Positions 8,226-61,716 of a stretch of 64,000 nt of DNA are shown piece after piece. The stretch is taken from assembly GCA_008632985.1 (NCBI GenBank), contig QPGO01000145.1, positions 124,001 to 188,000 on the forward strand, read 5' to 3'. The translations under genes were made by a program, and so were the position numbers. This DNA is from Psammoneis japonica (taxonomy: Eukaryota). The notes under the pieces were generated by a model, which made no database searches, was not told the DNA's origin, and saw nothing but the letters and a program-made list of their open reading frames with translations. Positions within the stretch are counted from its first letter, which is position 1. Every line of letters begins with the position of its first letter.

Positions 8226-8231
8226 GGTTCT

Positions 8232-26799: not shown

Positions 26800-28906
26800 A
26801 TGACTACCGAAGCAAATGATATTCCCTTTTATCTCATGCCCGTGGCGGCCGTCTTTGGCATGTACACGATTGTCGGTTCCATTCGGGCTGTATACTTGCT
26901 GTACGCCAATCTCAAAACAAAAGAGGGAGACATTCCTCCGGCGACGTCGTTGAAATCCAAGGCATATTCTCTACTGGTAATTTCAGTGCTACTCTCTGCC
27001 GTGGCATACGCCAAGGTGGTGGCCATGGTAGAAAACGCCGTGGCCGAATCGGATCATGCTCTGTTTGACCCGTACGACATTTTGAAATTGCCCGACAGCA
27101 CCACCAACACGACCGTCATTAAACAAGCCTACCGAGAGCTTTCGAAAAAGCACCATCCCGACAAGGGCGGAAGTGAAGCGGTGTTTCATAAAATCAATCT
27201 CGCCTATCGTGCCCTGACGGACGATAAAGAAAATTGGCAACGCTACGGACATCCCGATGGACCCGTGCAGACGCATTCGCTCACCTTTGCCCTGCCCGAA
27301 TGGCTGCTCCATCCCGAGGGCAAGACGGCGGCGATTTTGCTCGTGTTGTATTTGGGCATGTTTGTGGGATTAATTTATTGGGTCATCCGATATGCCACGA
27401 CTCAAGAGCAAAAGGCTACCAAATTGGAAATGGACAATTCGGTGGCGGGAGCCGATTTGGCCTATTTGGCATCGAATCTGTCGCCCGATAGCAGTCCCTT
27501 TGATATCTTGTGTTTGATTGCCACGACTCCGGAAAACATGGAACGCACACAGCAAAGTCTCGACAAGGCGGAGCAATTGAAAAAGGAAAAATTACAAAAG
27601 CGTTCGACCCAAAAAGATGAATTTGATTTGGGCGGTGGATGGGCCGATGATGACGAAGAAGAAGATACGGCAGCCGCAGAAGCCAAGATGGCCAAGGAAC
27701 GGGCCGAGCGGATTGCCAATGCCACGGGAACCAAGGAAGTATTGATGGAGGGTGTTGACGAAGGTGTCTTGGGACAACAATGGGTTCAAAATGCACTGGC
27801 AAAAAAGCAACAGTGGCCACCCAAACATATCGACGTGCTAAAGGGCAGAACCTACAAGACCAAGGACGGCAAGGTGGTGGATGCCATGGAGCACCCAGCT
27901 ATTCGACGAAACTTGTGCATGACCATGGGACGGCTCAATGCTCCCTATCTCAATACTCACCCCGAATTATGTGAGTGCATCTTGCGCGCGTGTGCGACTG
28001 TGTAAGTCGTCGTGGTGCCCGCAATTCTCACTCTTTACACTCACCTTTCTCTCTTTTATAGTGGAAGCTGGTTCCAAGAAATTGGTGGATGGCACGTACT
28101 TTTCGTCCACAATTGAATACCGCAACCGCGTTGGTATGCTCTTGGAGGCATCGTTACGGATTGCCATGCAAACCAAATCCTATCGTCTCGCCAAGACCAT
28201 TATCGAAACGGTCGTCATGTTCAAGATTGGAACCGTGTCGGTGCACAACAAGAATGTCATTAAGGAATTTCAACAAGGCATGATGAAAAAGTACGGCGGG
28301 GAGGATGGTGTCCCAAAGCTAAGTGTTAACTCGTGCCGTGTCTACACACCCGATGAGGAGGAGATTGCGACGGAGGATACGTGTGCGCTTGAGATTGATA
28401 TGGAACGTTTGCACGCGGAGAACTTTACCAAGCAAAAGGTTCAAATGTGTCAAGAACAAGGCATTCCTGTTCAAGTTGCACTCAAGAGTTATCGAGAGGG
28501 ATGGTGGATTTTGGTACGAGCGAAACGCACGGATGGAAAAGAAAAGGTGCACGATGAAGAAGATGAGGATTTGCCAGACAACAATAGTCTCTTGGCACAA
28601 GCCCTCCGAGACGGTGTCCGTGAGCGTTTTTCGGGTGAAACGGGTGAGAACCGTCTGGTCACGGCGTGGCCCTTGATTGTGCAGAATGTGTCACAAAAGG
28701 GTGGTAAACTCAATGTGCGGTTTCGAGCACCATCCGAACCCGGCAAGTACCGTTACTTTGTAGCCATCAAGAGTCAAGAATTCTTGGGAGCCGACCAGGA
28801 ACACACGGTGGACGCGGTTGTGGTGGATGCCGCCAGTATTACTCGGGTCGAGGACGAAGTGAGTGACGGGGAAGAAGAAGGAGACGAAGGAAAGAAAGAA
28901 AAGTAA
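26800..28906 (+). CDS. SEC63: Sec63-like ER translocon J-domain protein, 2 exons (intron 27971-28061)
   Basis: TM segments, J-domain FDPYDIL...YRELSKKHHPDKGG, NWQRYGHPDGP, FALPEWL, C-terminal YREGWW...FRAP..PGKY...SQEFLGADQ and an acidic tail. Confidence 0.88.
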
Positions 28907-31730
28907 TTTTTTAATTACATTATGCATGACTTGGGGCTTCTACTTGATGTAGTACTTGCACAAGTATCATTTTTTTCTCCCTCTCTTGATAGATGCTTTC
29001 GAGTTCTTCGTGGGGGTCTCGGCTGTAAGGTTACGAACAACGTTTCAACGACTCACCTTTCGAGAGTGATTCTTCTTCCGCCGTTTCGGTACTGGCAGTA
29101 GCGCAGAATTATTCAGCCTTTCAGGAAGAACTCGTGTTGGATTTGTCGCAATAACAGCTTGAAAGAGTTGTTGATATGGTTGGTTCTAGTCCCGGCACCT
29201 GTCTGCCTGTACGAACTCCCTCTCAAGTTCAAACTGTCCCTATACCATTTTCCTTTCGATGACGATTTCAGGCTTACATCCGGAAACTTAACCGCATATT
29301 GGAGAGCCTACGGGTAGCTGCGCCTCAATCAGAGGAAAGGCAGTCAAAGTACTGCGCAAGCAGCTCAGGCGCCGACTGCGTTCTTATTTGGTATTTTGCA
29401 ATGGAGTATTCGCTCAAATACTTCCCTTCATTGTCTGTTTCATATGGACATTATACTTTTATTTGGTCTGTACATTCTTTCTTGCACTTGTAGACATTGT
29501 TCTTAGACCTCAAAGTATTACGCAATATTCAAAGCCGGCTCTCTGTCTCTTGCAACGTTAATTCGTGGTTCGTCGTCGAGCAATGAAAAACGATGCACTA
29601 TTGTCTCCGTAGTTGTCTTCATACCACGCCGCCCGTATCCACAGGTCTCCTTCTTCAAAGAAAAAGACCGGAGGGCTTGGTGTCCAGGGTCTCGCATATT
29701 CATTCACTAGGGAAACAAGACCGGGGTCAAGTCCCAAGTGTCTAATCATCCATGAGTTTTCCGGCTTTTGCCGTTGCAGGTAGGCCTCAGCTTCTTCGGC
29801 ACTATCGAATCTCGGAATAAAGCCATTGCGCCTTTCGTCATCGCCATATCTTGCAAGTTTGTGTTCCTCGAGAATCCATCGGCACGCAACGCGCTTGTCC
29901 AACACCTGAATGCATCCTTCCGCTCCATATTCGGTTTCCCAATCCGCCGGGAACTTGACGATATTGAAACCAATGCTGTTATTAGCTCTGGAGATTTCTT
30001 CGAAGCTAAAGTTCGGTCGTTCCCATCCTTCATCTATATCTTCGTTGGCAAACACAACACATCCACTCAAGTTCTCCTCATCGCGAGATAGAGTCAATGT
30101 TGCATCGACCTTACATTGCACTCCGCCTTCACCACTGCCCCAAAAACCATGATGGTAAATCACATCATACTCTCCGACAAGAGTGTCAGGCATGGGTAAG
30201 GTGGACTGATAATCACACAAGTCTTCTGGAAATTCAAAAGACCTTGGGTATTTGTGCATTCTCAATTCCTGCCACTTACTCTCCCTTCTTTCAATTTCCT
30301 CAAGTCTTGCCTTCTCTGCTCTGTGACAATCTTCTTCTTCTTTAGGATAACACTCAAGGCACTTTCCACAAGACTCGCCTTGCTCAATGCATTCAAGCTC
30401 ATCTTCCGACATGGAACTGTCGGAACTAAAGCCACAGTCGTGATGATGCCTTTCTTCAAAGATGCTGCCTTTTCCGCCGGCCCATTGAAAGGCAGAAAAC
30501 TCTTCTTTCGCTTTCGTAAGGCCACAGCCACTGCATTTTCTGGGTCGAGACAGTAGCTCATCCTTTTTCGCTTTTCGCTCGGCCTTTTTGGCTTTTTCCT
30601 CGGCTTTTCGCTCGGCCTCTCTGGCCTCTTGCTCTTGGTTCCAACAACCACGACACATGGCGTCCTGGCCCTCGCTTGCCAGTTTGCGTTGGGCTTTCGT
30701 AAAGCTGCTCTGTTTGGTGGCACAAACACAACATAGCATCATGTCTCGCGTCTCCCAACAACCACGACACATGGCCTTCTTTCCCTCGTTTGCCAGTTTG
30801 CGTTGGGCTTTCGTAAAGTCGCTCTGCTCGGTGGCGCAAACACTGCACAGAATCTTTTCCTTACTCGCGCCATTGGCACCTCGGCTTGTCTTTTGCTTCT
30901 CTTGCTCCCAACAACCACGACACATGGCCTTCTTTCCCTCGTTTGCCAGTTTGCGTTGGGCTTTCGTAAAGTCGCTCTGCTCGGTGGCACAAACACTGCA
31001 GAGAATCTTTTCCTCACTCGCGCCGTAAGCGTCTCGGCTTGTCTTTTGCTTCTTTTTGGTTTGACTCTCAGCAGCTGCTGTAGCAACGTCCGGTCGCTTG
31101 TTCTTTCGTTCGCTCATGGTGGTGTTGTAAGGTGCGGTGCTTTATCACAGCAGGGGGGTCAGGATTTGGATTGCCGGTGCGGCTGTACCATCATGCCCGG
31201 CATTATCGTACCGGCCGGTGCCGGTACGGTACAGGAGGATTTCGAATCTCTGACTTTACCGGTATTCAGTACCGGGTAGGTAGGTATGCGGGGAATGGCG
31301 CCAAAAGAGCGAGAGGCGGCACGCATTTTTCGTGGCTTATTTTTGGCGGGAAAATTTTTGAATGACACATGTCCGAATCAACAATCAACCGTCAAGAAAC
31401 GTCTTTTAATGACACATGCTTAAAACAGGTGACGTGATGTGACCAAATGGGACAAGCGATTTTTGAAGGGGAAAACTTCGTAAACACAATGTCATCCAAA
31501 AATTCAAACACGCAAAATCGCCACAGTTCACAAAATCTCTAGTTCTGAGGGCTTGCTCTCCCACCATCCCCTCCTTCAAATCTTCCTTGTCATTGTGGCC
31601 ACAAGCAGTGCCAGCACCAGCCAAGCCAGCAACAAAGCCCCTTTCTCCCTCCTTGCCTTCTCAGCCACAGTGCTGAGAGTGCCTGTGGTGGCTTGGTCAG
31701 CAGGGGGGTGGTGAGCTGCCCTTGATGAAG
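28708..31730. repeat. Left (mostly intact) arm of a large inverted duplication
   Basis: Its reverse complement matches, in order, 37005-37480, 46700-48305, 56178-56650 and 61694-61716. Confidence 0.85.
29558..31117 (-). CDS. Hypothetical protein with tandem CxxC-x-F-x-x-x-Q-x-CxxC zinc-finger repeats (Stc1-like, tentative)
   Basis: 519-aa intact ORF with normal Tyr content. Three near-identical CSVCATEQSDFTKAQRKLANEGKKAMCRGC repeats, plus CSGCGLTKAKEEFSAFQW...CLEC. Confidence 0.75.
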   Translation of the reverse strand: MSERKNKRPDVATAAAESQTKKKQKTSRDAYGASEEKILCSVCATEQSDFTKAQRKLANEGKKAMCRGCWEQEKQKTSRGANGASKEKILCSVCATEQSDFTKAQRKLANEGKKAMCRGCWETRDMMLCCVCATKQSSFTKAQRKLASEGQDAMCRGCWNQEQEAREAERKAEEKAKKAERKAKKDELLSRPRKCSGCGLTKAKEEFSAFQWAGGKGSIFEERHHHDCGFSSDSSMSEDELECIEQGESCGKCLECYPKEEEDCHRAEKARLEEIERRESKWQELRMHKYPRSFEFPEDLCDYQSTLPMPDTLVGEYDVIYHHGFWGSGEGGVQCKVDATLTLSRDEENLSGCVVFANEDIDEGWERPNFSFEEISRANNSIGFNIVKFPADWETEYGAEGCIQVLDKRVACRWILEEHKLARYGDDERRNGFIPRFDSAEEAEAYLQRQKPENSWMIRHLGLDPGLVSLVNEYARPWTPSPPVFFFEEGDLWIRAAWYEDNYGDNSASFFIARRRTTN

Positions 31731-34199
31731 GCACCAGTCGCACAAGCCGTCTGCTGAAGAGCTTTGCCGAAGGCTCAAAAGCAGCCCCCTCACACTTTTA
31801 GATGGGGTGCACTGCCTTGTTGTTGGCATGCTGAAGTGACTCATTGGCTCTGCTTGGTGCTGCAAGCGAGTGCTTTGATGGGCTCATCCTTGTCTTTTTT
31901 TCATTGCATGCAAAGCACCAGGGGGGCAAGCTCCAGGGTGAAGACCCCTTGCAAATGATGCATCAGCAAGCAAACAACAAGCTGGGTGGCATGTGGCACC
32001 AGCACTGGGCTCTCACCTAAAAGAGTGTTGGCAATGCCAAACAAAGCAGCTGCAAATGGAAATCCGGCTGTGCTGGCACCCGGGGTTTTGCGCTTGCAAA
32101 GCCCAAATGGATGCACGCGGCATCTCTGCAGGCACCAGGGGGGGGGGGGGGCAACATTTTGAAATGGCAACGTGTGCACAGTTGAAGGGGGTGAGGCACT
32201 TTAAGTGCACTGGCACAATTTCTGGTGGACAGGAGCAGTGCACTGACAAGTGAATTTTGACTTTTTTTTGTCATCAAGCAGATTTTGTCCAAAGGGTCAT
32301 TCAAAAATTCGAGAGGCGCGCCATGTTTGCAAGATGGAAAACACACCCTTGACAAAGAGAAACCCACTCTCTTGGTGAGTCAAGCTTGAACAAGATGCTG
32401 AAGAAGTGCAAGCCAGACACAACGTCAGGGAAAGAACAAAAAGACCGGGGCAAAGCAGGCTCTGACCAGTTGTGACTGGTTCTATCGCAGAGTGTGAGCC
32501 CATGTGGAGGCTTCTTTGTGACTTCTTCTTCACCTTGTTGGTGACTCTGAAAAAGTGCCATGCTGCTGGCATGTGACTTGTGTCCATCAGATTGTCCTTT
32601 TCCTTTGAATTTGGATGCAGCAATCCAGTTTGCTCAGCTCAAGACAAAACAACAAGGCAAACCCCTGCTTCACAACCACACAAATGCTCCAGCAAAGGAC
32701 CAGCATGGAAACCCCATCACCTGCACACTGGTGATTGGAAAAGCCACTCTTTCATTGGGCTCTTCCGTGCTGCCACGAGCAAGCTTCACATGCACACTGC
32801 AAAACAACCAATGGCAAGTGCCAAGAAATGTGTGCTGATTGTTGTGAGATTGGCAGGAGAAAGCCCAAAAGGGTGCATGTGCTGGATGCCGCAAACACAC
32901 TGATGCTGATCTCCTTTTCTGGTGTCATGGAAGTTACGCCAAACATGAAAATTTCAAGACTGCACAATTGACCAATGGCAAGACTGTGCTTCGAAGTGCT
33001 TTTGCATTCTTGCCGGGCAAGGTGTGGGCCATTCAAGACTGCTGTTTGTCACATGATGACAAGTGTCATCTCATGATTTGGTTGTCATCATTGTGGGCAC
33101 AAAGTCATTTCTCATGCTGTGAAGAGGTTTTGGAGATGATGGTTGAGAAGTTTGTCACCGAGCACTTCCAAGTGTTAGAAAATGCCATCAAGGGTCTTTG
33201 TCACTGAGCACTTCCAAGTGTTGGAAAATGCTGTCAAGGTCTTTGCACCAAAATCTGTGGCAAGCATGACAAGAAGGATCTTCATTCATGATTTGGGACG
33301 ATGAAATGTCCTAAATTCTTGGGAACCATTGCCACTCTTATTTGGGTGTGTTGTTTCAGCATCAAGTCAGACAAGTTGTTTCCCACAAGAGACGAGTTGG
33401 AGCTCAACAAGGAACATCATGAAAAAAAATTCCATGCAACTTGCTCCTGGATTTTTTTGAGTTTGCTTGCAAAACCACTCTGGGAAGGGATGTTAACAAG
33501 ATGTCAAATGACATCATTGGAACACATGTTCTTGAAGGACCAGCTTTGCATTTGCTGAATGGTGCTCTACAAAGGACAAAGATGCTCACTGTGTTGGCAA
33601 ATGGGAACCCATCCACATGAAGCATCTTTCTTTGTTTGCATCCATCATGGCAACTCTGCCAGATGCCAAAAGCCTCTGCCAAAACTTGCTGATTGGCACA
33701 TCACAGAAGTGCTTGGTGTGCAGCAGAGCAGCTAATTGACCACCAAGCAACTGTGCACAAAAGCTGCATCATGCACCCCAGACTTGTCTAATGAAGAAGA
33801 AATGAAGCAGTTCTTGATTCGTGAGCTTGGATCCAGCAAGGCAGAGGTGTGGCAATGCAAGTGCATGACAAGTCTGCTGCAGAAAGAGTGCATGCTGCAC
33901 AGTCTACAAGTGTTGAATTGCTTGCCAATGCCAAAAGTGCAGGTGAGAAAAGAGCTGCTTCTGACCCAGCTCAAGGTGAAAAGAATGCCAAATGAACCAA
34001 GCCCATCAGTGACACCATCGCACAGTTTGATCACGACTGCCAATCTGAATTTAAATCCACCAAGGATGCTGCTGTCAAGCTTTTTTCAGGCATTTTTTGA
34101 CACACACCAGGATGTGAAGGATCAGGTGCATGCCAGCAAGTCCTTGGAAGATCCCAACAAAAACAAAACCCAAAGTCTAATTTTTAAGTGCTGCTGCGC

Positions 34200-36800
34200 T
34201 TCCACCCTGCAACTCCAGCAACAAGCTAACCCACACTCCCAGTGCACTGGGTGCGGCAGGAGCATGTGTCAATTGGCCAAGATTGGCATCACCCTCGGGT
34301 GATGCCATGCCAAAATGGCTTGCAATGGTTTGCATGCCTCTAACTGCCAGACGTTGGGCCTCATGGATGCTCGACTTGAACATTGGCTTTGCCACAGCCA
34401 ACCAATTCTGCACTCGGTGGGTGGAGTGAGTGAGATGTTTGTCAACTGAATCCAACAACTGAGCTCGGTCACGAGCCAAGCACTCGTCCTTCCTGGAATG
34501 GATTTCTCTGATCTCTGCCTCTGCATCTCTGCATTGCAAAGACCATCTTGTTTTTGGAATCATGTCCGTGCACTGCATCATTGTGAGATCGTCCTAGAGA
34601 TCCCACCATTGAGACCACACATGACTGCCAATCACAGCTGCCCAGTCTAATCGTCGGTCTTTGTCAGACAAGGAGCAGCACAAGCCAGAAGACAACAGGT
34701 GGGATGTTTGGGCCTCGTTCCACAGCAAAGAAAAATGCCCATTAAAGACATGTCACCATCCGACATCCTCTTGAGATCCAAATGCCTCCGTGACACCATG
34801 GTGGACTTTGTCAGAGCAAAGCATGTCTTTGTGCAAAACCAACCCTCCAAGGCACACAACAAGAGATCCCGAATCAAAGGAGAGGCATGAATGTCATCAC
34901 ACTTCTTCCGCAGTCCTTGGAGGAACGTGCGCCGCCATGATTCATTGTGCTCGCATTGCAGCATGTGGTCTCTGTCCTCGAGGGGATGTTGGCAGTGCAC
35001 GCAACAGTCCAGGCATGTGGGATTGCATGGTGGACAATTTTGTTTGTTGGCAGCAAATCTTGGACAAGTTTACAGTGCTGACCTTGCGTCTGATGTTGCA
35101 AGACATCAATTTGGAGTGAACGTGCCAGTCGACTGAGTTGTGCACCGACTCAGACCACCCGTGCTTGTCTTTCGTGTGTGTTGTGAGGGCTGGACTAGAA
35201 GCTTTGCATGAAGAACTGACTTGAACTTGGAAGTCACCAACGAACCTTGAACTGTTAACACAGCAGAACAGCGGGGCATGTGGGGAGCGAGCAAAGTGTC
35301 ACCGGCACATTTGCCTTGGAATGAGCTGGCCAACTTGTCAAACGAATGTTCAATTTAGCTGGGAAGGAAAGGGACTCATGTGGGCTGCTGTCATCTTGGT
35401 GACCTTTGATCCACTGCAGGTCAACCAAGGTGCCTGCTGAACATTCTGGGACTTGAGCCTCCAAGCTCTGCAAGGAAACAAAAACTTTGTGCACAATGTC
35501 CCAGTCAGGCAACAGCGTGTTAGCGATGTGGTGTCAATGATGATGGCTGCATTGTCTGTCAACGGCATCCCCATCGTCTGGAGGAGGTGGGAGGGAATTG
35601 AAATTTGCAACATTTTGGACCAAAAAGAAGAGTTGTCACAGAACACTTCCGTGCCTTGTGACAGAATGCCGTTGCAAAATTCCACCAGGCAAAAAAGGAA
35701 CCACAAGACAGACAAAAACCTGCAGGCTTCAGCATGACATGAAGAAGGTCAAAAACCAAAGACTGGTCCTGTGCACTCAACTGGCGTCACTCCGTTGATT
35801 GCCAACACCCATCCAAAGGTGCCCTGAAAGCACAGAACCAAACCGTCACAAAAGTTCTCCAGGGATGCTGCCATTTCAAATGTTGAAGCGTGCAGGGTGA
35901 GCTCGCAAAATGAGGTAGACTCCCATTTCGGCAAGGACTGCAACCAGTCTCGAAAATTGCTGCAGACAGGAATGGTCGGTGGGACGTCAACAGTGGAAAA
36001 CATCAACCTGAGCATCCATCTGCCATCCAAAGTTGGCCAACTAATGTGGGAGATGCCAGTGGGGAAATGTCTGGGACAGTTTCCAGCTGATGAAGAGATG
36101 CAGCACAGTCATCTTGCATGGGAAAAACCTGAAATCCAGTGTCTGATGGGATGCAAAGAAACTCTTCCGCAGGCTCACAGCAGGCTGTGTGACAAATTTG
36201 CATCTCGGACATGGGAACTGTCCACTGACCCAAAGGATGTTGTGAGGTCGCGGTGCTGTTGGCACAAAACAGGGCCATGGCACGACGCGCTGTTTCCAGG
36301 CTCAAGCAGATGGGGAGCTTGTTCAATTGGATTTGATGACAAGGTGCAACTCATCAGGGATCTTTGTCCGTTCAACATAGATTCTTCTAAGTGTCTGCCA
36401 TGGGAAGGGTGATGTCCAAAACAGCGAGCACAAAAGAAACAACCGGCAGCAATTTACCCACCAAATTTCTTATCGGAGAAAACATTCGACTCCAACACCA
36501 CATCCAAATGTGCTGATCATTGTCACGTTGCGTCAGGAGGACACCGGTGAAATCAAGCTCAAAGCATGGAAGATCCCAACAAAAGCTTTGCAAATCAAGC
36601 CACTTGGGTCATCCAGTGTGTTGAAGATTGCTGCAGCAGCAAGGTTGATTGTTTTCTTCAAGAAAATTCTGGGCCCCTGTCAAAGTTCAGAATGTGCAAC
36701 AAAAGGGTGTCAATCACAAGCCTGCATTTGACATTGCAAAGCTGCAAGAGGACGGGACTTGCCAACACATGAAAATGCTTGATCTCATTCATCATCATGT
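34200..36800 (-). mobile_element. Degenerate RNase-H-bearing non-LTR retrotransposon (Ambal-like LINE), 3' part
   Basis: GTFGWVLA, DWDIV...QWIKGHQD...LNIR (RNase H), HCQHPLEDRDHMLQC (zinc knuckle), C-terminal NWLAVAKP...QTIASHF. Fragmented across frames; boundaries approximate. Confidence 0.7.
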
Positions 36801-37004
36801 GCAGCACATCACACTGCACTGAACTCGTTTGTGTTTCAGGGGTTTCTGTGACTGCAAGTGCGAGTGGGTGCAACCACATGTGACATGTGCTTTAGTCCAT
36901 TGTGCTCTGTGTGCACCACCACCGGTTCTACACAAGTGCACAGTGCACAGATGTGCTCCTGCACTTGTGTCTGTCTTGGTGCCACTCCCAATGGACAGCA
37001 CAGA

Positions 37005-37479
37005 TTTTGATGGGCAGCTCAAATGCCACTCCCGTTGACCATGCTGCCACAGGCGCTCTCACCACTGCAGCTGAGAAGGCAAGGAGGGGGAATGGGCCTT
37101 TGTTGCCTGCTTGGTGGCTGGGGGGCAGAAAAAGCCGGTGCGCCACAAACAAGGGGGGTTTGAGGAAGGGTGTGTCAGGAGAGCAAGGCCTCAAACTGGA
37201 GATTTTGTGAACTGCAGCAATTGTTTTGTGTGTTGCATTTTTGAATGACATTGTGTTTGTGAAGTTTACCTCCAAAAATCGCTTGTCACATCATTGTCAT
37301 GTCATCTGGTTTTAGCATGTCATCAAACAGACGTTCCTTGATGACAATGATTTGGACATGCATCATCAAATGGACATGACATGTGGTCACGGATTCAATT
37401 GTTTTACCGCCAAAAACAAGCCAAGAAAAATGTGCCGCCTCTCGCTCACCTTGCTCTTTTGTGGCACCATTTGTTCCCC

Positions 37480-37480: not shown

Positions 37481-37481
<1 letters not shown>

Positions 37482-37511
<30 letters not shown>
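37482..37511 (+). repeat. (CT)15 microsatellite
   Basis: Read directly from the sequence. Confidence 0.95.
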
Positions 37512-37513
<2 letters not shown>

Positions 37514-38640
37514 TCCAGAGCAGCTGGAGCTGCTCTCTGTGGGTGTCTGGTCCACCGGGTTTTTTCCTCAATTGAGGCAGCAAAATTGTCCTCAATTGAG
37601 GCAGGTGAAATGCACGGCAGACAGAAAACAACATGCCATTTTGGCAAATGACACGAGAGATGACGATGTCAATTCCATTGTGCAAAGCAGTCTCCACAAT
37701 GACAACGAAGCTGTTTTAATGCTCGTCACACTGCACTTTACATGTGCAATGTGCTTGCCTGCACCAAATTTGAATCCTGATGTCCACAAATTAGCCACAA
37801 ATGTGGGATGCGAAAATGGCCCATCACATTCATAAAAACACTTTTGACACACTTTCAGCCACCGCATCGTCTCACATTCAACACATGTCAATGCACCACA
37901 TGCTTGTCATTGTTGATTGTTGTGTTTTGGTGACACAAATTGACACAAAGATTGTTGATCTTGGTTGTTTGTTGTGACAGCAATTCTGATGCTGCAATCG
38001 CAAACAATGCTTGTTGAAAGCTCATCTGCACACAACAGCGCACTTCTCTTCATTGCAGAGAAGACATCCTGCTGCACACGCAGCACACATTTGCCATCGT
38101 TGCAGACCCAAATTTTTGAGGTGCCATTTTTTTGCGTTTTGCACTTGATCCCTCCTTTTTTCGACTGTCACTTCAATTTTGAGACTCGGGTCACCATTTC
38201 ATGGGAACTTTCTCGTAGATTCTACGACACAAATGGGCGACAGACAGACAAATGTGACAGAAGAGTCCATTTCCATCATCCCCGTGCTTTTTGTGCAGCA
38301 TGCGATGCTGACAATGGCGTGCCGCCGGTGACGCCATTGACTGATTTTTGTGAGATGAAATGCATTGGATGTGTCTTGTGGCGAGCGACAAGCACAGATG
38401 TGCGCCCATGTTGACTCTGGATGCAGTTTGTGGTTGATTTCAGTGCATCATTGTCAATGGCTTTTTTTGCAATTTTCTGCGTGAATTACGTGCAGCAACA
38501 ATGCAGGATGTTGATGACAATGGCATCATCTCAAATGATCGATTAGAGCTGTCAGACAGACACCAGTGAGCCAAATGTTGCATCAGCTGCACTTGTCATG
38601 TTCATGTTGTCACTGCAGCATGCCTGGAACCAGTGTGGAT

Positions 38641-39029
38641 GACGCGTTCCAGCCCCAGGTGGGACTCCCTGTGACATTGGGCCCACAGAATTCCACATGC
38701 GAGCTCCGCAGTGCGAGAATTTAATTGATGGATGTGGTCATCTTCAACATCAAATGAATGGCCAAGTTTGTGGTGCAATTGTGCCTCTTGCCACTCAACG
38801 TTTTTGCAAATGCACCTGCCCCAAGCGATTCTTGGGACATTGTAGAATTGCGCTGCAACAAAAAATGTCAAAAGTTTTTGGACAGATCACTCAACAAGTG
38901 CACCGCAAAATGACACAAAATGTCAAAAAATCAAGTGGAACTCCACGTGCACGACACACAACGAGATTCAAAAAACTGTCGATGTCACAGTTCAGTGGTG
39001 CGAGGTCCCACCTGGACCTGGAACGAGTC
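38641..39029 (+). mobile_element. MITE, hypermutated copy
   Basis: TIRs GACGCGTTCCAG / CTGGAACGAGTC, flanks GGAT / GGAC; colinear with 44834-45222. Confidence 0.9.
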
Positions 39030-51300: not shown

Positions 51301-54300
51301 GAGATCTGCGACCACTGTGGAAAGTGCAACCACAATGCGCCAAGTGTTGTTCTTGCCTCTGCGATTTGAAGAATGGCGCGCCCAAGGAAAACCCTGCTGC
51401 CAAGCCTCCTCACGACCTGAGCAAAATCACCTGTTTTCACTGCAAGAAAAAGGGTCACCTTCATCCAGATTGTCCCGAGCTTGCAAAGGACGCAAAACAA
51501 ACCGCTCTTGCGGCCACTGCACCCACCATGCATTGCCAAGCAACGGCACCTCCACCAAACGGCCAAATCATTTTCTGTGTCACTCACACTGACATGGAGG
51601 ACACTCACTCTTTTGTCTCCTCCTCCTCAGACTCCACCCCGCCTCTGGAATCATGCCACATTTCCTTCGACGACGATTCCTCGGCCGACTCCTCCAACAG
51701 TGACACCATTGCATCCTCATTGACTCATGGAACAATGCCAACATTGTCCCTCCAGGACCTTCTTGCTGACACTGATTCGACTCATGGCAACAACATCTCA
51801 TCCGCCAGCTTGGCCTCCTCTGGTCCGCCGCCTCTTGCATTTCATGACCGAGACTCCAGCACGGAATCTTCACTCACTGTGCCGTCTTTGCTTGTCACTC
51901 AAGCACACCCGACAACACCACGGCCTCCACTTTTGGTGCACCGCCTCCCGGGCACTCTGCTGCGGCACCCCCTTTCTGCTTTGACTGCCACGACACTTTC
52001 ACCATGGAATCTTTTGCCACCAGGCCCACTGCAGTCTCTGATGATGACAACGACTCCGTCATCTCTGACATCAGCTTCGACCTCATGGATGCAGCCGACA
52101 CTGCCCCCTGTCACCCATGCAACACCTCTGCTGATCACGTTCAAATTGCATGCATGGCCGATGATCCCAGTCAATGCCAACCTCAACAAATGCCCCGCGA
52201 CACTGACCTCACCGACATCTGCAGTTGGTTTGTTGACTCTGGTGCTTCATCTCACTTCGTCCGTCATGACTCACTCGACAACAGTGCCCCCTGCCACGTT
52301 CCTGTTGTGATTGCCGACGGCACCACAGTCCATGCCACGACAGTCGGATCCGTCACTTTGCACTTTCAGGATGACCAAGGACACCCGGTCAACCTTGTCC
52401 TTGATCGTGTTCATCACATCCCGGGGCTCAATCGGAGCTTGTTCTTGGCACCCTCCTTCACGGCCAATGAACTCTTCAACATCCGAATCACCACCAACAT
52501 CACGACGCTCGATTTTGGCAATGGGCACACTTTCAGTTTCCCGACACTCCGTCACAAGCGCTCCTGTCACAATGCCACCACTGACACAGCACCGACATCC
52601 ACTGCTGACCCCATTTTGATGGAAACAACCGACACCCAGAGCTCCTTGAAACCGATGACTCTTGCAATCGACCTTGACCTTGCAGGCCGCCGTTTCAGTT
52701 GTCGCTCCTCTCAGAGTCTTTTGGCAGGCACAGTTGGCAAAGTTTGGTGCGACTGCCACATTGCCCCCAGGACTGACAACTGTCTGGACAATGCGCGCAT
52801 CACCATCTCACGAAAGCTCAACCGCGCCAAGTGTGACCCGACTGAACCCACACACACATTTTCACGTGTGTTCATGGATGTAATTCCCAACCCTCGCACA
52901 GTCGCACTCACCCCAAAAACGTCTTTTCCCTGCCATCTCTTTTTGGCAACTCACAAAGGACACTGCTGCAGTGTTCGTGGTCTCGAGAGTCCATCATCTG
53001 GCAATGTCATCACCGCATTTAAATCATGGATGACCGACGCACAATCCCAGGGACAAGTCCAAGACATGAACTTCATCCGCGCTGACTCCGCGCAACATTT
53101 CCTGTCCTCCGAATTTCTCGCCTTTGGGGAAGACAATGGCATCAAGGTCGAGGTCGCCGCTCCACGACACCAGGAACAAAATGGAGTCGCTGAACACATG
53201 TGGCAGGTTGTCAGCAACATGATCCGCTGTCTGCTTGTCAACGCACGGCTCTCGGCACACTTCTACCATCATGCATTTGTTCATGCCGTCGCCATCCTGA
53301 ATGTCCTCCCAGCTAAAGGCACACGGCTGCCTGATGGCTCTTCAGCTACGCCGCACTTCCACGCATTCAACAAACTCCCCAAGATTGGCAACTTCCGTGT
53401 TTTTGGATGCCCCGTCACTTTTGACAGATGCCAACCCCTCAACCCAGAAACTCGTCGCCCGACCACCACCCAACAACAGATTCAATGTCGATCTTGATGC
53501 ATCCACATCGGTTTTGCACCAAACCAAGCTGGGTGCCTCATTCATGTTCCCGAGGGCATCGGCACCAAGAATCTGATTGTTGTGTGCGACGCTGTTTTCG
53601 ACGAACTATTTGATTCGTCTCTCGTTCATGACCACGTCCCTTTCTCTGGTGCCCTCCCGATCTGGAACATCTCCAACAATGCCTCTGGTCTCAAGACACA
53701 CAACAAGACCCCAGCAGATGAACATGCGGGCACCATTCAAGATTTCTTTGATGTTGACTCACCCCCTCCTTCCTCCACTCTCGCCAAAGCGCCTCCGGAC
53801 TCCGACAAATCCGATTCGGACCCACCGTCTCCTGCACCTGCTGCAACCGGCCTCAGACGAGCTGCTCGCATCAACGCCGGCCACCGCACATCCATGCGCT
53901 TCGCAGATGAAGAGCAGCTGTGTGCCATCTCCTCCACTCCCCCAGTCGACCTCCTCGAGCAAACTCTCTTCGATGACTCGCCAGCCATGGAATCTGTGCA
54001 CAGTGCCTTGATCGAATCTCCTTGGCCTGACCACAACTGGCATCAATGCCCGGATCCTTTGCAACAAGCTTTGGAAGCCGTCAAGGCCACCACTTCAACC
54101 CCCATTGATGACTGCTCACCCGTTCCTCGCTCTTTTCGAGCCATCCTCAGACAACCTCCCGCGATTCACGATGCCTGGCTGCGTGCTGTCCGATCCGAGC
54201 TCAAGAACCTCACAGTGGACAATGAAACCTTTGCTCTTCACGAATGTCCCCGTCCAGACGATGAGATCATCGGCACCACCCTTGCTCTCCGTGCCAAAGA

Positions 54301-56177
54301 GAAATCCGACGGCTCTCTGGAGAAACTCAAGGCTCGATGCTGCGCGCGCGGCGACGTGCAACGCAAATCAGCCGATGACGACAATTGGTCTCCAAATGCA
54401 TCCTCTCGTGCCATCAAGCTCTTTCTAGCCTTTGCTGCGAAGGCCAAACGACACGTCAAGAATGGTGACTTTGTCGGTGCTTACCTTCAGGCCCCAGCTC
54501 AAGGCCGTCTCTTTGTCCGCTTCAACCCAATTCTGAAGCAACACTTTCCCGAGCATGCCGAACATTTTGGTGTGCCCCTCCGCCTCAAGAAGGGCATGTG
54601 CAGGACCATCCGCAGCAGTCTTTGGTGGTCCACCGAGCTCTCCGAATTTTGCTTGCCAAGGATGCACCAATTCCAAGGCAGACCCCACCTTCTTCGCCAA
54701 GCACTTCCCTGACGGCTCACATGTCAAGCTCATCTTCTGCACGGACGACATCATCTGTTTTGGGTCTCACGATGGAGTCGAGAAGGATTTTGAGAACCTC
54801 GTACGATCCAGGCACAACATTGCATTCAACGGTGACGTCACCTGGTTCTTGCAAATGTGCATTCACCGATGCGCCGATGGCTCCTTCTCTCTCGACCAAC
54901 ATCGATGCATGCGCAATCTCCTCAAGCGGTTTCTCACTCCCAACTCACCTTGGGGCAGCCCCAGCTTTCAGGATGCTCCAGCTCTCGTTGATTGTGTGCA
55001 CTCCAAGTTGAATCAACCCAAGGATGCCGTCAAATCCAAGCAAATTGCAAACAAGTGTCCCGGACTCCATTTTCGCTCCGCTGTCTGCTCCATCCTCTAT
55101 CTCGCTTGCAACACTCGCGCTGACATGCTTTGGATCACCTGCAAACTTGCAAAGGCTTGCACCAACCCCGGCATGAAAGATTTCGATGCTCTCATTCATC
55201 TTTTTGGCCACCTCCACAAACATCAAGACCTTGCCATCAAATTTTGTTCCGGTCCCACCATGAGCCCTGTTCACGCGATTTGCAAAGCTCACAATGTCAG
55301 TCATTCTGAATTTGTGGTCTTCACTGATGCCAGCTGGCAAGACTGTCCGGACACCGCTAAGTCAACTGTTGGATTTATGGTCCACTTCAATGGGGCAACA
55401 GTGGAAGCCAATTCCACTGTCCCAACTCCTGTGGCAATGTCCGCCGCCAAATCCAAGTGGATGGGTGCCTGCACTGGTGCTGTGGCTGTCACTCACCTGC
55501 GCATGTTGGCACACGACTTCACCTTCCTTGGCACCCGCCACTGCTCCATTGACTCCCAACGCCTCTCCACTGCTCCCACCATCCTCATGTTGGACAACCA
55601 AGCAGCAGCCCAAATGGCCCAAAATGACCAACAGACTTGACGAACCTGACACATCGAGTGACGTTTCCAATGTGTCCATGAAGGCCAGTGCCTTGGTCAT
55701 CACTTGCTTGTTTGGGTCCCTGCTGAAAGTCAATTGGCGGACTGCCTCACCAAAACTCAATGTGCAGACAAAATTTGGGTCATGGTCGACCGTGTCCCAT
55801 GGCGTCTCCCTGCACACATGTTGTCATGAGCTTCTTGTCATCTTCCCTCATTCGGTTCAAGGGGGGTGACAGGGATCCCACATGCCCTTTTTATGTTGGA
55901 ACCTCATGACCAAAGACAACACATCTTCAGTCCAGTTTGTGATTGAAATTTGCCGATCTTTCGGAGTGCTTCATCAACCTGTCAGAATCTGTCTGATCTG
56001 GACATCATGTCAATTCTGAGACTGGCTCAGAATCTCTCACACAACTTCTGGACAACGCATTGTCGCAAGGTGCTGCTCCTGGATTTAGCTTCTAGCTTGC
56101 TCTCTCCTGTTTGTGCACAGACTTGATCACCCAAGACACTCTCAGGCGAGTGCCCAGTTCTTTCCCATCTTCTGTCA
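48306..56177 (+). mobile_element. Full-length Ty1/Copia LTR retrotransposon (CoDi-like), hypermutated
   Basis: LTRs 48306-48613 and 55867-56177 (TGACAG...CTGTCA); TSD CAGGG; PPT AAGGGGGG. Gag knuckle CFHCKKKGHLHPDC, protease WFVDSGASSH, integrase IRADSA..EQNGVAE, RT ARCCARGD / DFVGAYLQ / IFCTDD, RNase H FTDASW, in PR-INT-RT-RH order. Confidence 0.95.
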
Positions 56178-56650
56178 CAGGGGCACACGTGTGGACACTT
56201 TGAACTTGAGAGGAAGTTCGCATTGATGTGACAGGTGCCAGGATTGGAACCACATGAACAACTCTTTCGAGCTGTTGCAACAAATCCAATGCTGACTCTT
56301 CCTGAATTGCCAGCACCGAAACGGTGAAAGAAGAAATCACTCTCAAAAGGCGGGTCGTTGAAACATTGTTCGTGCAGCCCCCAAAAACAATTCGAAAGCA
56401 TGTAAAAATTTGTGGCACTTTTGCAAGCATCAGAGCAAGAAGAAGCACCAAGTCTTGCACAATGAAACTAAAGAAATTGCTTCACTTTCTTTCCTTTGCC
56501 GTCTTCTTCCCCGTCTCTCACTTCGTCCTTGACCCGAGCAATGCTGGCAGCATCCACCACAACCATGCCCACTGTGTGTTCATGGTCAGCTCCCAAGAAT
56601 TCCTGACTCTTGATGGCTGTGGCAATGGCACTTGCCGGGTTCGGATGGTG
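56178..56650 (-). pseudogene. Inverted duplicate of the Sec63 3' end and downstream intergenic DNA
   Basis: The minus strand reads AIKSQEFLGADHEHTVGMVVVDAASIARVKDEVRDGEE versus the intact AIKSQEFLGADQEHTVDAVVVDAASITRVEDEVSDGEE. It resumes for ~23 bp at 61694-61716 after the Gypsy. Confidence 0.9.
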
Positions 56651-59600
56651 TGCAGCATGCCTCGCTGCTGGACAACACGGCGAGACCGTGCATGAGCCTC
56701 TTGTGCGTGGCAACGCAGTGTTGTCAACACACACCTGGGAAGCACGACCACAGGAGGGTGTGGCTCCAGGTCTTGGGCAATTCCAGAAGGATGCTAAGAG
56801 AGCATCCGTGTGAAGCACACCAGCCCGTCGTCTGGCCCACGATGGCAGCGTGATTCCACACGATGACATCACTCGTGCACAGCGCGTGATGGCTTGATTC
56901 GCACGATCCACAATGCGAAGGCACAATCGATTTGATGCGATCCAAATGCGAACAAATGGGGATTTGGCAAGATTCCCCATTTGCACGATCCCACTTTCTC
57001 CACTCCAAACTGGCTCACAATTTTCACAACGACAAAGTCGCAACACATCTTCTTTTTCAGCGCCTGGCACATGCATGGGGCACAGCGACATTGCTCCCGC
57101 ATGTTGTGCGAGGTGACGAAATCTGCAGAAACGAAACTGCGAAATGTTGGTGGGACCGACAAATCTTAAAACGACCATGAAGAAGCGGATTGAGCCACCG
57201 ATTCCGTTCGCACGGCCGGAGAAGAAAGAGCTGCAGCAAGGCGAGTGCCAGACGTTCAAGCTGCGCAACAACCCTGCCAATCCGGATGGTCCAACGCACG
57301 AGATGGGCATTCCGCACCTTTCTGCGGCTGCATGCGAGACACTCCCAATCTTTCTGCACAACGTGGATCGCGTGCATGAAGGACAAAACATCACGGCTGG
57401 GCCAGCGAAATTTGCCCTCATGCGTGACCCACTGCAGGGCGATGCTCTGACGTCATTTGACAGTGCCGCTGACAAGCAGGCATCTCAAACCAACGCCACG
57501 TGCACAGCATGCGTCGCGAAGCTAAAGGAAAGCATCTTCCCACACAGGGCGGTGCCATTGCAGAAGCATTGTCTGAGGCGCTTCACGCGCAAGCCCGCAG
57601 AGGTTTCCACTCGTGACTGCATCGCGAGGGCTGTTGAAATTAACGGCTGTGTCTCTCAGTTTCCACCCATGACGGAGGATGGAGAAGCACCGGCACCATC
57701 ACCCAATGACGAACCATGCGACATGTTCGAGCACAGTGTGCCAAACGCATGGCAGAAGTTCATGACGCCACAGAATTTTGACCCGTTGGCGCACACTGTC
57801 GCCGAATTTGCACAGTTCTGCGAGCGCATCGAGCAGGTCGAGCTTGCTGAAGGTAACCTGGACCAACACACTAAGGTCCCACGCAAGCGGGGACGTAGAA
57901 CGGACAATCCTGAGTCGTTGATCACGACCCAACGGAACACCCAGAAGTCGTGCATGCTGCACGGGACCAACTGTGGACATCATGCGGAGGATTGCCGTCA
58001 GCTCAAGCACCACGCAAAACGTGTCAAGACTGGACATTCCAATGACGGAGGGCAGCAAACCTGATGCAAAACCTCGGAATGAGGAAGACATTGACACTCT
58101 CATCGGATCGAAGGTCGAGGAGTTCTTTGCCAACGCTCAGAAAAAACGCAAGGCACGCGAGGAGGAGCTCAATCACTTCCGCGACCTCAACTTAAGTGAT
58201 TCCGAAGATTCGGACACCTGAGAAGGGGGGCCGACACGACACAGGCACTTTTAACACATCAGATGAATGTATAAATGAACAACTGAATTACCATCGTACA
58301 CGTGTTGTAGGCCAATCCCGCAAACGAGTTAAAAAGACTCATCTTACTCCAATCTTGTTTATAGCTATGAATGCTAAACATGGCAAGGGCAAGACTCAAA
58401 CCATTAAGGCACTACTAGATAGTGGCGCCAGCAGCACTCTACTCGACAGTCGATACTGTAAACGTCTGCGAAGCCATTCAACGGCTGAGACAAACTGGAC
58501 TACGGTAGCAGGCTCGTTCAGTACGTCTAACGACTGTACCGTTAAATTTCGGTTACCAGAATTATCCGAAACGGAAACCGACCGGATTTCGCGTATTTTA
58601 GACGCTAAGTACGCGCCGGCCTGCCTCGAGGACATAACGCGAGGGGCAATAGAATTTTCTATTGTTCAACAAAACGACCTTTTGGCACTATAGAAACGCC
58701 ATGAGTCCTTATTTGATGGGACATTAGGAGAATGGAAGGGAGAACCCTACCATATCCAACTCAAGGAGGGTGTAGAACCATACCACGCTCGTCCGTATAA
58801 AGTACCTCGTGCGTACGAAGCTACGCTACGTAAAGAAGTAGAACGCCTAGTGCGCATTGGTGTTCTCAAACGCGTTAACCGATCCCAATGGGCAGCTCCA
58901 TCATTTATCACACCGAAGAAAGATTTAACGGTGCGCTTTATTAATGATTTGAGAGAGCTGAATAAACGGATCAAGCGATTGCCTTGTCCGATTCCTGATG
59001 TCCAAGACATGCTGCTTGAGCTCGAAGGCTTTATGTGGGCTGCATCGCTGGATTTAAATGCAGGCTGTCATCACATCCGATTGGATGCTGACAGTGAGAA
59101 GCTTTGCACGCTCATCTTCCCGTGGGGCAAGCATGAGATGCAGGCATTGCCCATGGGATTGTGCAACTCGCCAGACATTTTCCAAGAACGCATGTCAGGC
59201 TCATTTGAAGATCCATGGTTCGTTCGAACGCACTTAGATGACCTTCTCGTCGTGACGAAAGGCACCCATGAAGATCACCTCAACAAACTTGAAGAAGCTT
59301 TGTTGAGGGTCCAGAAAGCAGGACTAAAAGTTGACGCAACTAAATCTCACTTCTGTCAAACCCAACCAGAGTGCTTGGGCTGTCTGGTCAACAGAGACGG
59401 AACGCGACCAACACCTGACAAAGTGGACGCCATTGAGCGAGTCGCGACCCCAGCCAACAAACGCGACCTGCGCTCATTTGTTGGCATGGCGAATTGCTGC
59501 CGTGATGCGTGGATCAGACATTCTGAAGTCTTGGCTTCGCCAACACGACTCGCAAGCAAGACTGTCAAGTGGGAGTGGACGTCCATTGAAGACGAGGCGC

Positions 59601-61693
59601 TCGAAACCGTTGAACGGGTGACATCGGATGATGTTTTGTCGTCACATCCTGATTTTGACAAACCCTTTGAGACACATGCCGATGCCTCTAAATGTCAATT
59701 GGGAGCAGTTGCACCCCAAAATGATGAACCTGTCACCTTTTGCAGCAGAAAGCTCAACAGCGCGCAATTAAATTGTGCAACAACGGAGAGAGAATTGCTC
59801 GTCATTGTGGAAATGTTGAAAGAATTTCGAATGATTCTCCTTGGTCATCGCATGATTGTGTGTGCTGATCATAAAAATCTTGCATGCAATGCGGCCCCGA
59901 ATTACGCTGTGTTGAGGGCACCCACAACCCAGTCGCTGACGCTCTTGGTCGCCTTCGACTGGCACCCAGCTTGCCTTCCGAGGCCAATCCGGATGTAAAC
60001 GACACACCATCGAGTCATCCTTTGCATGAAGCTTTTAATGCAGACGCGCAAGATGAGATGTCTCTGCCCATTAGCTTCAAGCGCATTCAAAAAGCACAAC
60101 AAAAGGACAAGCGCCTACTCTCACGAGCTAAGGACTCGTCCGACTACTCCATTCGCGCGTGTCGTGGGGGAGGGTCATCACGACAGTTAATCTGTCATAA
60201 GGACAAAATCGCAGTACCACAGTCATTGCAGGTTCCGCTAACTGAATGGTGCCACGAGACACTGTGTCATCCAGGTGAGACACGTACGGAAATATCTATT
60301 GCCCAGCACTTCTATTGGCCTAGTATGAGGTCTACGGTGCATTCTACGTGCGTTAAGTGCGATCGATGCCAGAAGACAAAACGCCGAACGCAGCGTTATG
60401 GGAAGCTACCAGAAAAGGTCGCAGAGATAATTCCATGGGAGACTCTATGCATAGATATGATGGGGCCATATAAAATTCAAAGACGCGGAAAGGACACTTT
60501 GCAATTATGGGCAGTCACAATGATTGACCCAGCAACCGGGTGGTTCGAGATTAAAGAAGTGTCTACGAAACGCGCAGACGTCGTAGCAAACGTCGTGGAA
60601 CAAACGTGGCTATGCAGACATCCGTGGCCAACCCAGGTGGGTTTATGACCGTGGGACAGAATTTATGGCAGAATTTAGCCAGATGATTAAAAATGACTAT
60701 GGGATTTTGAAGAAACCCCTAAGTAAACGGAATCCACAGGCGAATGCCATAGTGGAACGTGTACACCAGACACTTGGTAACATGGTACGTTCCTTTTCAG
60801 TACAGAATATGGAACTGGACGAAGATGACCCATGGAGTGGCATCCTCTCCGCAGTAGCCTTCGCTATTAGAGCTACGGTACATACGACCACGCGTGCAAG
60901 TCCCATGCAATTGGTCTTCGGACGCGATGCGGTTTTTATCTATTGCCTATCGTGCTAAGTGGAAGTACATGGAAACCAGAAAGCAGAAGCTTATCCACTT
61001 TTAAACAACCAGCGTGAAAATCAGAAATGCAAGAAGTGTCAATATACCGTAGGGCAATTGGTACTTATCAAACAGGAACAATCCTCTAAATACGGTTCTG
61101 ACAGCTATGCAGGACCCGCCAGAGTTGTCTGTGTATATGACAACGGCACGTTGCGTGTCCAGAACGGAGCGCTGATAGATACGTACAATCTACGGCAGAT
61201 TGTACCCTATCACCAGTAAGACATCCTGTCACTTTTAACGGCCCTGATCATGGGGGAGTGTGCAGTATGCCTCGCTACTGGACAACACGGCGAGACCGTG
61301 CATAAGCCTCTTGTACGTGGCAACGTAGTATTGTTAACACGTACCTGGGAAGCACGACCACAGGAGGGCGTGGCTCCAGGTCTTAGGCAATTCCAGAAGG
61401 ATTTCAAGAGAGCATCCGTGTGAAGCACACTAGCCCGTCGTCTGGCCCACGATGGTAGCGTGATTCCACACGATGACATCACTCGTGCATGGCGCGTGAT
61501 GGCTTGATTCGCACGATCCACAATGCGAACGCACGATCGATTTGATGCGATCCAAATGCGAACGAGTGGGGATTTGGCAAGATTCCCCATTCGCACGATC
61601 CCACTTTCTCTGCTCTAAACTAGCTCACAATTTTCACAACGACAAAGTCGCAACACATCTTCTTTTTCAGCGCCTGGTGCATGCATGGGGGCA
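56651..61693 (+). mobile_element. Ty3/Gypsy LTR retrotransposon, partly hypermutated, with internal deletions
   Basis: LTRs 56651-57082 and 61261-61693 (TG...CA); TSD GGTG; PPT GGGGGAG. Gag 57177-58220 (CMLHGTNCGHHAEDC), protease LLDSGAS, RT WAAPSF..PKK / DLRELNK / LPMGL, RNase H DAS..LGAV, integrase H..LCHPG..CDRC / CIDMMGP / NPQANAIVERVH. Confidence 0.95.
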
Positions 61694-61716
61694 GGTGCTC
61701 AAAACTGCACATTGAG

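Follow-up and report, generated by a model that had tools for sequence, protein, structure and literature searches.

The stretch of DNA considered here (the window) comprises 64,000 nt of the genome of Psammoneis japonica, positions 124,001-188,000 of contig QPGO01000145.1 in assembly GCA_008632985.1. It contains an inverted duplication of host DNA, one arm of which is largely intact while the other lies in a block of transposable elements (TEs) that has lost nearly all of its 5'-TA-3' (TpA) dinucleotides. The window is nuclear DNA of a diatom (a stramenopile) and not of a fungus: an open reading frame (ORF) for seryl-tRNA synthetase has diatom proteins as its best matches, with 72-80% identity among the 120 listed, and the named relatives in that list include Chaetoceros, Thalassiosira, Skeletonema and Seminavis. 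Dinucleotide content is ordinary where host genes lie, namely those for a MYND-finger protein, an alcohol dehydrogenase, two Mpv17/PMP22 proteins, a light-harvesting protein, a BipA-like GTPase, the seryl-tRNA synthetase and Sec63.

The arms of the duplication were found by self-BLAST, and a short resumption of homology across the site of a Gypsy element by alignment with MAFFT. The left arm takes in the 3'-terminal ~200 bp of Sec63, the DNA between two convergent genes, an intact gene of 519 codons in which no Pfam family was matched, and some 600 bp upstream of that gene. Its inverted counterparts lie well to the right: 28728-29239 matches 56650-56193 (73% identity, E 1e-86), 29390-30740 and 30899-31200 match 48255-46708 (82-83%, E 0 and 4e-88), 31307-31721 matches 37447-37012 (73%, E 5e-61), and a fifth, short piece follows past the Gypsy element (61695-61716). 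These right-arm pieces are collinear and together make up nearly the whole left segment. An earlier first-pass annotation had the left arm, at 28.7-31.7 kb, reappear inverted in four places, and its coordinates agree with those from self-BLAST and MAFFT to within about 50 bp. Its description of a 33-kb inverted duplication is right as to the inverted arms but not as to their size, for the homologous right-arm DNA comes to only ~2.5 kb, and 33 kb is the total span, including a 5.3-kb unclassified spacer and the insertions.

The duplication of the ~3-kb host segment is local and inverted, and it is old, since the arms have diverged by 9-16% even outside the TA, CG, TG and CA classes (the measure of background divergence used below). 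As the same annotation had proposed, one arm is intact and the other mutated. The left gene is open throughout, whereas the copy in right-arm piece B carries CGA->TGA stops at codons 4, 8 and 367, a frameshift from a 1-bp deletion, a set of repeat units shorter by 267 bp, and many replacement changes, among them Tyr->His/Cys. The polarity of the arm differences was read from an environmental ortholog of the 519-codon gene (P0121, 56% identical over the whole compared region), which agrees with the left arm at 38 of them, with the right arm at 14 and with neither at 40. Six tyrosines common to the left arm and P0121 are changed in the right arm (four to His, one to Cys, one to Asn), and at three sites it is the left arm that has the derived state.

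Read support was taken from run X1, as Logan contigs, with k-mer depth as the measure of copy number and a baseline depth of ~45-60. The run contains 87% of the sampled words of 25-35 kb and covers 30 of 30 bins of 44-64 kb; the contig-by-contig comparison with the window was made over 44-64 kb. Features of the duplication and its surroundings are collected in Table 1.

Table 1. The inverted duplication, its insertions and adjoining features (positions within the window; O/E, observed/expected ratio; LTR, long terminal repeat; TSD, target-site duplication; MITE, miniature inverted-repeat transposable element)
Feature	Position	Strand	Evidence and remarks
Seryl-tRNA synthetase ORF	25005-26528	-	Protein matches
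Sec63-like host gene	26773-28906	+	Pfam DnaJ 1.7e-12, Sec63 (Brl) 1.2e-7; 3' ~200 bp within left arm
Left arm of inverted duplication	28708-31721		Self-BLAST, MAFFT; unconverted to ~31480, TA O/E 0.55, CG 0.97
Intact zinc-finger-like host gene, 519 aa	29558-31117	-	Repeated CxxC...CxxCW zinc-ribbon-like units
Left edge of converted domain	31480-31540		TA and CG density both fall; ~370 bp upstream of ATG, inside duplicated segment
Spacer between arms, unclassified	31722-37011		TA O/E 0.10, CG 0.31
Right-arm piece C (= left 31307-31721)	37012-37447	-	TA O/E 0.10
MITE copy 1	38640-39029		390 bp, terminal inverted repeats; converted, TA O/E 0.08
Ngaro-like element	39544-46695	+	Split direct repeats A1 39544-39737, B1 46223-46339, A2 46362-46555, B2 46579-46695
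MITE copy 2, nested in Ngaro-like element	44833-45222		Terminal inverted repeats; unconverted, TA O/E 0.57, CG 1.35
Right-arm piece B, zinc-finger-like pseudogene copy	46708-48255	+	TA O/E 0.14
Copia	48306-56177	+	308-bp LTRs TG..CA, 90% identical; RVT_2, Pol_BBD; TSD CAGGG at 48301-48305, 56178-56182
Right-arm piece A (= left 28728-29239, Sec63 3' end and intergenic DNA)	56193-56647	-	TA O/E 0.06
Gypsy	56651-61693	+	430-bp LTRs, 93% identical; TSD GGTG at 56647-56650, 61694-61697
Final right-arm piece (= left ~28708-28729)	61695-61716	-	MAFFT
Converted DNA of unclassified origin	61717-63245		Single-copy k-mer depth; TA O/E 0.04, CG 0.12; sharp edge near 63245

The first-pass annotation had the right-arm pieces split by an unclassified block with a MITE, a Copia element flanked by CAGGG and a Gypsy element flanked by GGTG, and the LTRs, domains and target-site duplications of these elements were indeed found. 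The spacer block gave no Pfam family in a scan of 76 ORFs over 31.5-46.7 kb. The Copia element has the marks of the Ty1/copia group (LTRs of the form TG..CA, a 5-bp TSD and an RVT_2-type reverse transcriptase, RT), with multiple frameshifts, a TA O/E of 0.06 and a CG O/E of 0.78. The Gypsy element has LTRs, a 4-bp TSD and the domain order of Ty3/gypsy (protease, RT, RNase H, integrase, matched as PR, RVT_1, RNaseH and Integrase_H2C2). An integrase catalytic core was not found in 56651-61693, and this copy is probably deleted for it. For the element called Ngaro in that annotation, the split-repeat layout holds, its A1..B1-A2-B2 arrangement being that of Ngaro elements (which belong to the DIRS order), but the RVT_1 match is weak (E 0.0025) and neither Pfam nor PDB searches of 39544-46695 found a tyrosine recombinase; the heavy loss of Tyr codons may hide one.

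The insertions differ in age. Background divergence is 2% between the Copia LTRs, ~1% between the Ngaro-like repeats and 0.9% between the Gypsy LTRs; the Copia and Ngaro-like elements came first, followed by the Gypsy element and a MITE copy, both of which are still polymorphic. The left arm has a single GGTG at the corresponding position, and in a run contig of depth 51 position 56646 is followed at once by 61694, with four letters in common, as expected of an empty Gypsy site. MITE copy 2 is likewise skipped by one run contig, while another bridges the junction of the Ngaro-like element with the right arm. Considering these contigs and the depths of the two families in run X1 (5000-20000 for the Gypsy, ~78000 for the MITE), the Gypsy element and MITE copy 2 are young, high-copy and polymorphic. 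The Gypsy family also has internal variants among the run contigs, for example a joint 60623->61258.

The central observation is an asymmetric loss of TpA between the arms, measured from dinucleotide O/E ratios, a 250-bp map and the aligned arms. Positions with TA on the left and TG or CA on the right number 47, with a single case of the reverse (binomial p 3e-13), and CG on the left faces TG or CA on the right 50 times against 15 in reverse. The direction of change is therefore TpA->TpG/CpA, alongside CpG->TpG/CpA; TpA has been lost, not made. Adenines preceded by T show A->G in 46 of 138 cases (0.33), as against 0.055-0.092 in other contexts and 1 of 33 in the reverse direction. The TA O/E falls from 0.79 in the left intergenic DNA, with 0.50 in the host DNA of 20-28.7 kb, to 0.06-0.14 in the three right-arm pieces and 0.00-0.1 in the transposons. 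The overall count of transitions was tried as a test for asymmetry and rejected: the totals are symmetric (119 vs 127) because TA->TG/CA and CG->TG/CA changes cancel in them, and the context analysis alone shows the difference.

Could selection on the functional left copy account for this asymmetry? The first-pass annotation offered this as its alternative, and the non-coding part of the alignment speaks against it. There, TA on the left faces TG or CA on the right 19 times and the reverse never occurs, so that selection on the left copy is not the cause, and neutral TA sites on the left have plainly not been converted as often as those on the right. The left copy, its non-coding DNA included, has escaped conversion as far as a sharp boundary that lies ~370 bp before the ATG of the gene. 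That annotation had conversion over the genic part in the right arm only; a correction concerns the distal 220 bp of the left arm (31501-31721), which are converted as well, with 1 TA against 11 expected and 2 CG against 16 expected.

The edges of the converted domain are abrupt. At ~31.5 kb the 250-bp map and the position lists show TA dropping within 60 bp from ~10 (19 expected) to ~1 (13 expected); TA recovers at 63,245, and CpG changes at both the ~31.5-kb and the 63.245-kb edge. The unique TA-poor DNA is reproduced by run X1 contigs at the single-copy depth of ~45-60. Within the domain the stop triplets TAA and TAG occur at ~2 per kb each, compared with 6-8 in host DNA, and the mean stop-to-stop length is modestly longer (38.8 vs 30.6 codons). 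These observations bear on the view of the first-pass annotation that conversion is targeted by chromatin domain and not by homology pairing. Targeting by region is supported, as far as sequence comparison can tell, because the edges of TA and CpG loss coincide, single-copy DNA is converted, high-copy young insertions are not, and the left copy is spared.

Within the Gypsy element, conversion is patchy. The segments 56651-58250, 59001-60000 and 61500-61693 are converted, with unconverted patches between them; episodic tracts, ectopic gene conversion or a consensus mosaic are possible sources of these ~1-kb patches. At 13 sites the 5' LTR reads TG or CA and the 3' LTR still TA; 13 of 14 TA sites in the 5' LTR are converted, and the LTRs show only 4 other differences in 429 bp. 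MITE copy 1, the older one, shows 15 TA->TG/CA changes relative to the young copy 2 and 1 in reverse. The Copia LTRs differ by 7 TG<->CA doublets, which is the result expected if each ancestral TA was converted independently in each LTR, on a random strand. Conversion thus follows insertion, acts on either strand at random for each site, and goes near to completion.

The consequences for coding capacity are clearest in the RT/RNase H ORF of the Gypsy element, where 16 alignment columns have Tyr in at least 60% of 40 homologs. The two that fall in an unconverted patch keep TAC, whereas the 14 in converted DNA have become TGY (eight), CAY (four), TGG and ATG; the catalytic YIDD (YxDD) motif now reads HLDD. 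Since CpG O/E is still ~1 in the converted Gypsy patches, TpA loss is much faster than CpG decay, and by an indirect estimate it would run roughly 100-1000 times faster than background substitution. The order of TG and CA outcomes along the DNA alternates as by chance (runs-test z of -0.64, +1.14, -1.33 and +0.31), with no strand-coordinated tracts in these four comparisons. No clear preference for flanking bases was found; at most it is weak, the base on the 3' side of the edited A being G or A a little less often than expected and C more often.

The same signature is present in other assemblies and other element families, where it hits individual copies. Two of 120 Gypsy RT homologs (P0129 and P0227) are poor in Tyr and rich in Cys and His, with Cys or His at 60-70% of the conserved-Tyr columns, and a third (P0204) has Tyr replaced at about one-third of them. 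A metagenome comparison, made with contigs related to P0227 (not its exact contig), yielded 77 loci of which L011 alone is clearly TA-poor (TA O/E 0.29, CpG 0.97); L033 has a patch, and the others range from 0.59 to 1.18. L011 and its nearest relative, L001, are 91% identical, with 95 mismatches, and differ by 54 TA->TG/CA changes against 3 in reverse, while CpG changes number 2 against 0; in other words, 54 of 75 TA sites have been converted at ~3% other divergence. Public protein sets therefore contain products of converted elements, which may mislead annotation as well as the dating of transposons by LTR divergence.

Two further TA-poor islands lie among the host genes to the left. The first (501-4250) has 2 TA in 3.75 kb, where ~14 are expected per 250-bp window, and its edges are equally sharp. 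Near this block, which is TA-free from ~500, positions 3-269 match two blocks of the alcohol-dehydrogenase region (13432-13584 and 14135-14252) at 85% identity; the two blocks are ~550 bp apart at the gene and adjacent at 3-269, a stretch that may have arisen as a processed (spliced) copy of the gene or as a partial one. The second island (17251-19500), also sharp-edged, has a single TpA in 2.25 kb (~140 expected) and is an example of how small a targeted domain can be. It consists in part of MITE-related inverted repeats and lies between an Mpv17/PMP22 gene and the light-harvesting-protein gene; the two Mpv17/PMP22 genes (16166-16769 and 21075-21684) are diverged direct duplicates, 67-75% identical, that flank the island and the light-harvesting-protein gene. 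A region of intermediate TA content, 6710-8225, is a long array of diverged tandem repeats, with 65-77% self-similarity at several offsets, and adjoins a DDE_Tnp_4 transposase ORF (8235-9308).

Differences between the window and run X1 number 137, of which 40 are listed. These comprise 26 CpG<->TpG/CpA differences, 4 rows that make up two TG<->CA doublets, 1 TA->CA and 9 others. A contig over 62875-63999, which starts in the distal block where CpG is exhausted and crosses the 63.245-kb edge into DNA of host type, has zero differences. Over 44000-52000 the differences, for the most part at CpG, are concentrated in the TE domain and reach ~2.5% in one 529-bp contig. This distribution suggests that methylation-driven divergence between haplotypes or strains is ongoing.

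How did two copies of one segment come to differ so strongly? A host segment of ~3 kb was duplicated locally and inverted, and its right copy lost its function and was later split by the Copia, Ngaro-like, Gypsy and MITE insertions. That copy is embedded in TE-rich DNA (31.5-63.2 kb) where 5'-TA-3' is rewritten to TG or CA by a context-specific process, with the strand chosen at random for each site. We consider it probable that this process is an enzymatic genome defence, one that would be directed at chromatin in a silent, CpG-methylated state and not at repetition itself. Its chemistry would most likely be the deamination of adenine to hypoxanthine, which is read as G, at TpA on either DNA strand, with an ADAT/TadA-like or other deaminase-fold protein as the candidate enzyme; the oxidation of thymine in the same dinucleotide would be less likely. 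Erasure of TpA would remove Tyr codons, including that of the RT YxDD motif, along with TAA and TAG stops, and would leave the elements permanently inactivated. TATA and AATAAA signals are presumably lost too.

Other explanations have to be weighed against this one. A repeat-triggered mutator resembling repeat-induced point mutation (RIP) might hit transposons and leak from a few hundred bp to ~1.5 kb into their flanks, right-arm pieces included. The geometry allows for it: none of the right-arm pieces exceeds 1.5 kb, all of them are flanked by transposons, conversion reaches only ~220 bp from the spacer into the left arm, and most of the converted DNA is recognisably of TE origin. Nevertheless we regard it as unlikely, in that the arms themselves form a 3-kb repeat and yet the left one is untouched, MITE copy 2 and large Gypsy patches are unconverted despite their family depths, and the window contains no second copy of two stretches of converted DNA, 1.5 kb and 5.3 kb long, the one at 61.7-63.2 kb being at single-copy depth. 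In Bigelowiella natans, moreover, the target of a similar process is described as single-copy (Mettrop et al., bioRxiv 10.64898/2026.01.13.699255, April 2026 preprint). Somewhat less likely again is that no dedicated enzyme is involved and that a regional bias of mutation or repair, in methylated and late-replicating heterochromatin, slowly strips both TpA and CpG. Such a bias would account for the shared edges of TA and CpG loss and for the depletion of both in the oldest blocks, but TA loss is complete where CpG O/E is ~1 and LTR background divergence is 0.9-2%, which implies a rate 100-1000 times background; the patches, furthermore, are of kb scale, and L011 has 54 TA conversions for 2 CpG changes.

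The remaining alternatives have much less in their favour. Editing of element transcripts at the RNA level (A-to-I, by an ADAR/ADAT-like enzyme with a 5' U) and its fixation by reverse transcription would fit the retroelements that make up many of the targets, and the 5'-U preference of A-to-I editors matches TpA (preprint 10.64898/2026.01.13.699255). It is very unlikely all the same: the conversion of a host-gene copy, of a DNA-type MITE, of single-copy DNA that is unclassified and of the left arm's last 220 bp contradicts it for non-retroelement DNA, the LTRs of one element differ by conversions that must therefore have arisen after integration, and both strands are equally hit. An artefact of sequencing or assembly, such as base-calling errors at modified bases in repeats, is suggested by so extreme a pattern confined to repeat-rich DNA, and is just as improbable as RNA editing. 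Run X1 contigs reproduce the TA-poor DNA at normal depth, even with independent TG/CA alternatives; TG and CA outcomes are mixed site by site; the right copy also has transversions, indels and a frameshift; and L011, an unrelated metagenome contig, has the same signature. Finally, that purifying selection on a left gene which is indeed intact and conserved merely masks a process that hit both arms equally is the least probable of all, and close to negligible, given the non-coding counts above and a left intergenic TA O/E that is at or above the host background.

Several points weigh against our preferred reading of a silencing-guided defence. We infer both the silent state of the domain, from sequence alone, and the enzyme behind TpA conversion. 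Converted blocks that are unique today may descend from old transposons that were still repetitive when conversion struck, in which case repeat-triggering followed by spread could account for them. P0121 might be a paralog instead of an ortholog, and the patchiness of the Gypsy element could reflect a mosaic consensus drawn from a family with a k-mer depth of 5000-20000x. The sample behind the assembly may also be the source of run X1, which is therefore not fully independent; the run is without the Gypsy element at 56651-61693, which means that not all haplotypes or strains share one arrangement, and its contigs bridge some of the junctions but not the whole arrangement. A broader proposal can be offered only tentatively, as a possibility that falls somewhat short of being probable: diatoms may have a homology-independent, silencing-guided defence in which a deaminase or its equivalent erases TpA in repressed chromatin, and as the same occurs in Rhizaria, it may be ancestral to the SAR lineage (stramenopiles, alveolates and Rhizaria).

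The one described match that we found is the chlorarachniophyte Bigelowiella natans, a rhizarian, in which de novo TpA->TpG/CpA mutation is reported at ~1000 times background in silent, single-copy viral inserts (Mettrop et al., preprint 10.64898/2026.01.13.699255). The preprint proposes adenine deamination in a 5'-T context, with an ADAT2-like candidate enzyme, and describes TpA-poor, CpA- and TpG-rich clusters that are enriched in TE domains, as well as activity that appears episodic; the words 'diatom' and 'stramenopile' are absent from its main text. What is seen in P. japonica resembles that account in the TpA->TpG/CpA change, on either strand, in discrete foreign or silent regions that include single-copy DNA, and in a rate orders of magnitude above background. 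The features that define the B. natans process appear to recur here, namely transitions confined to TpA, discrete regions independent of copy number (and putatively silent) and a high rate. The two cases differ in that the host here is a diatom, the targets are transposons and a trapped host-gene copy, and CpG decay runs alongside. The TA O/E of 0.00-0.14 is also near saturation, compared with 0.45 for the B. natans viral region, and the evidence is comparative, whereas that from B. natans consists of de novo mutations in mutation-accumulation lines. No report of TpA loss, hypermutation or a RIP-like process in diatoms was found in the literature searched, which left out most subscription journals, and the diatom finding thus appears to be a new case of a very recently described form of hypermutation.

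The signature is now seen, at near saturation, in a member of the diatoms, a major group of marine primary producers. The inverted duplication serves as a built-in control, the same sequence lying inside and outside the target domain on one chromosome, and for this reason location and silencing can be separated from homology and selection. Mechanistic models are constrained by the random choice of strand at each site, the lack of a strong flanking preference, the kb-scale patches, a speed above that of CpG decay, and edges that are sharp within ~60 bp.

A part of the change is of a familiar kind. Diatom TEs are CpG-methylated (PMC9998398), and the excess of CpG->TpG/CpA in the right arm, 50 vs 15, is like the CpG decay by 5-methylcytosine deamination that such methylation brings. 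The loss of TpA is not explained by CpG decay, being faster and complete while CpG O/E is still ~1.

Editing of the APOBEC/ADAR type acts on single-stranded cDNA or RNA, and yields strand-coordinated clusters or affects only elements with an RNA intermediate. The process described here shares with these animal systems the deaminase-style, context-specific transitions that cripple retroelements, but it hits both strands at random and extends to non-retroelement DNA. Fungal RIP, known from ascomycetes, is premeiotic, depends on RID, needs duplicates and mutates both partners, changing CpA to TpA (C:G->T:A) and so creating TpA. The first-pass annotation had drawn on RIP for comparison, and as a mechanism it does not carry over, since direction, homology dependence and host all disagree: TpA is here destroyed, one duplicate is spared, young high-copy elements are unconverted, and the host is a diatom. 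As an analogy RIP remains apt, for both processes hypermutate by transitions at particular dinucleotides, put mobile DNA out of action for good and can affect the DNA next to it. If the interpretation given here is correct, silencing-guided erasure of TpA would serve the same function as RIP does in fungi, although its chemistry runs the other way and its targeting follows another logic.

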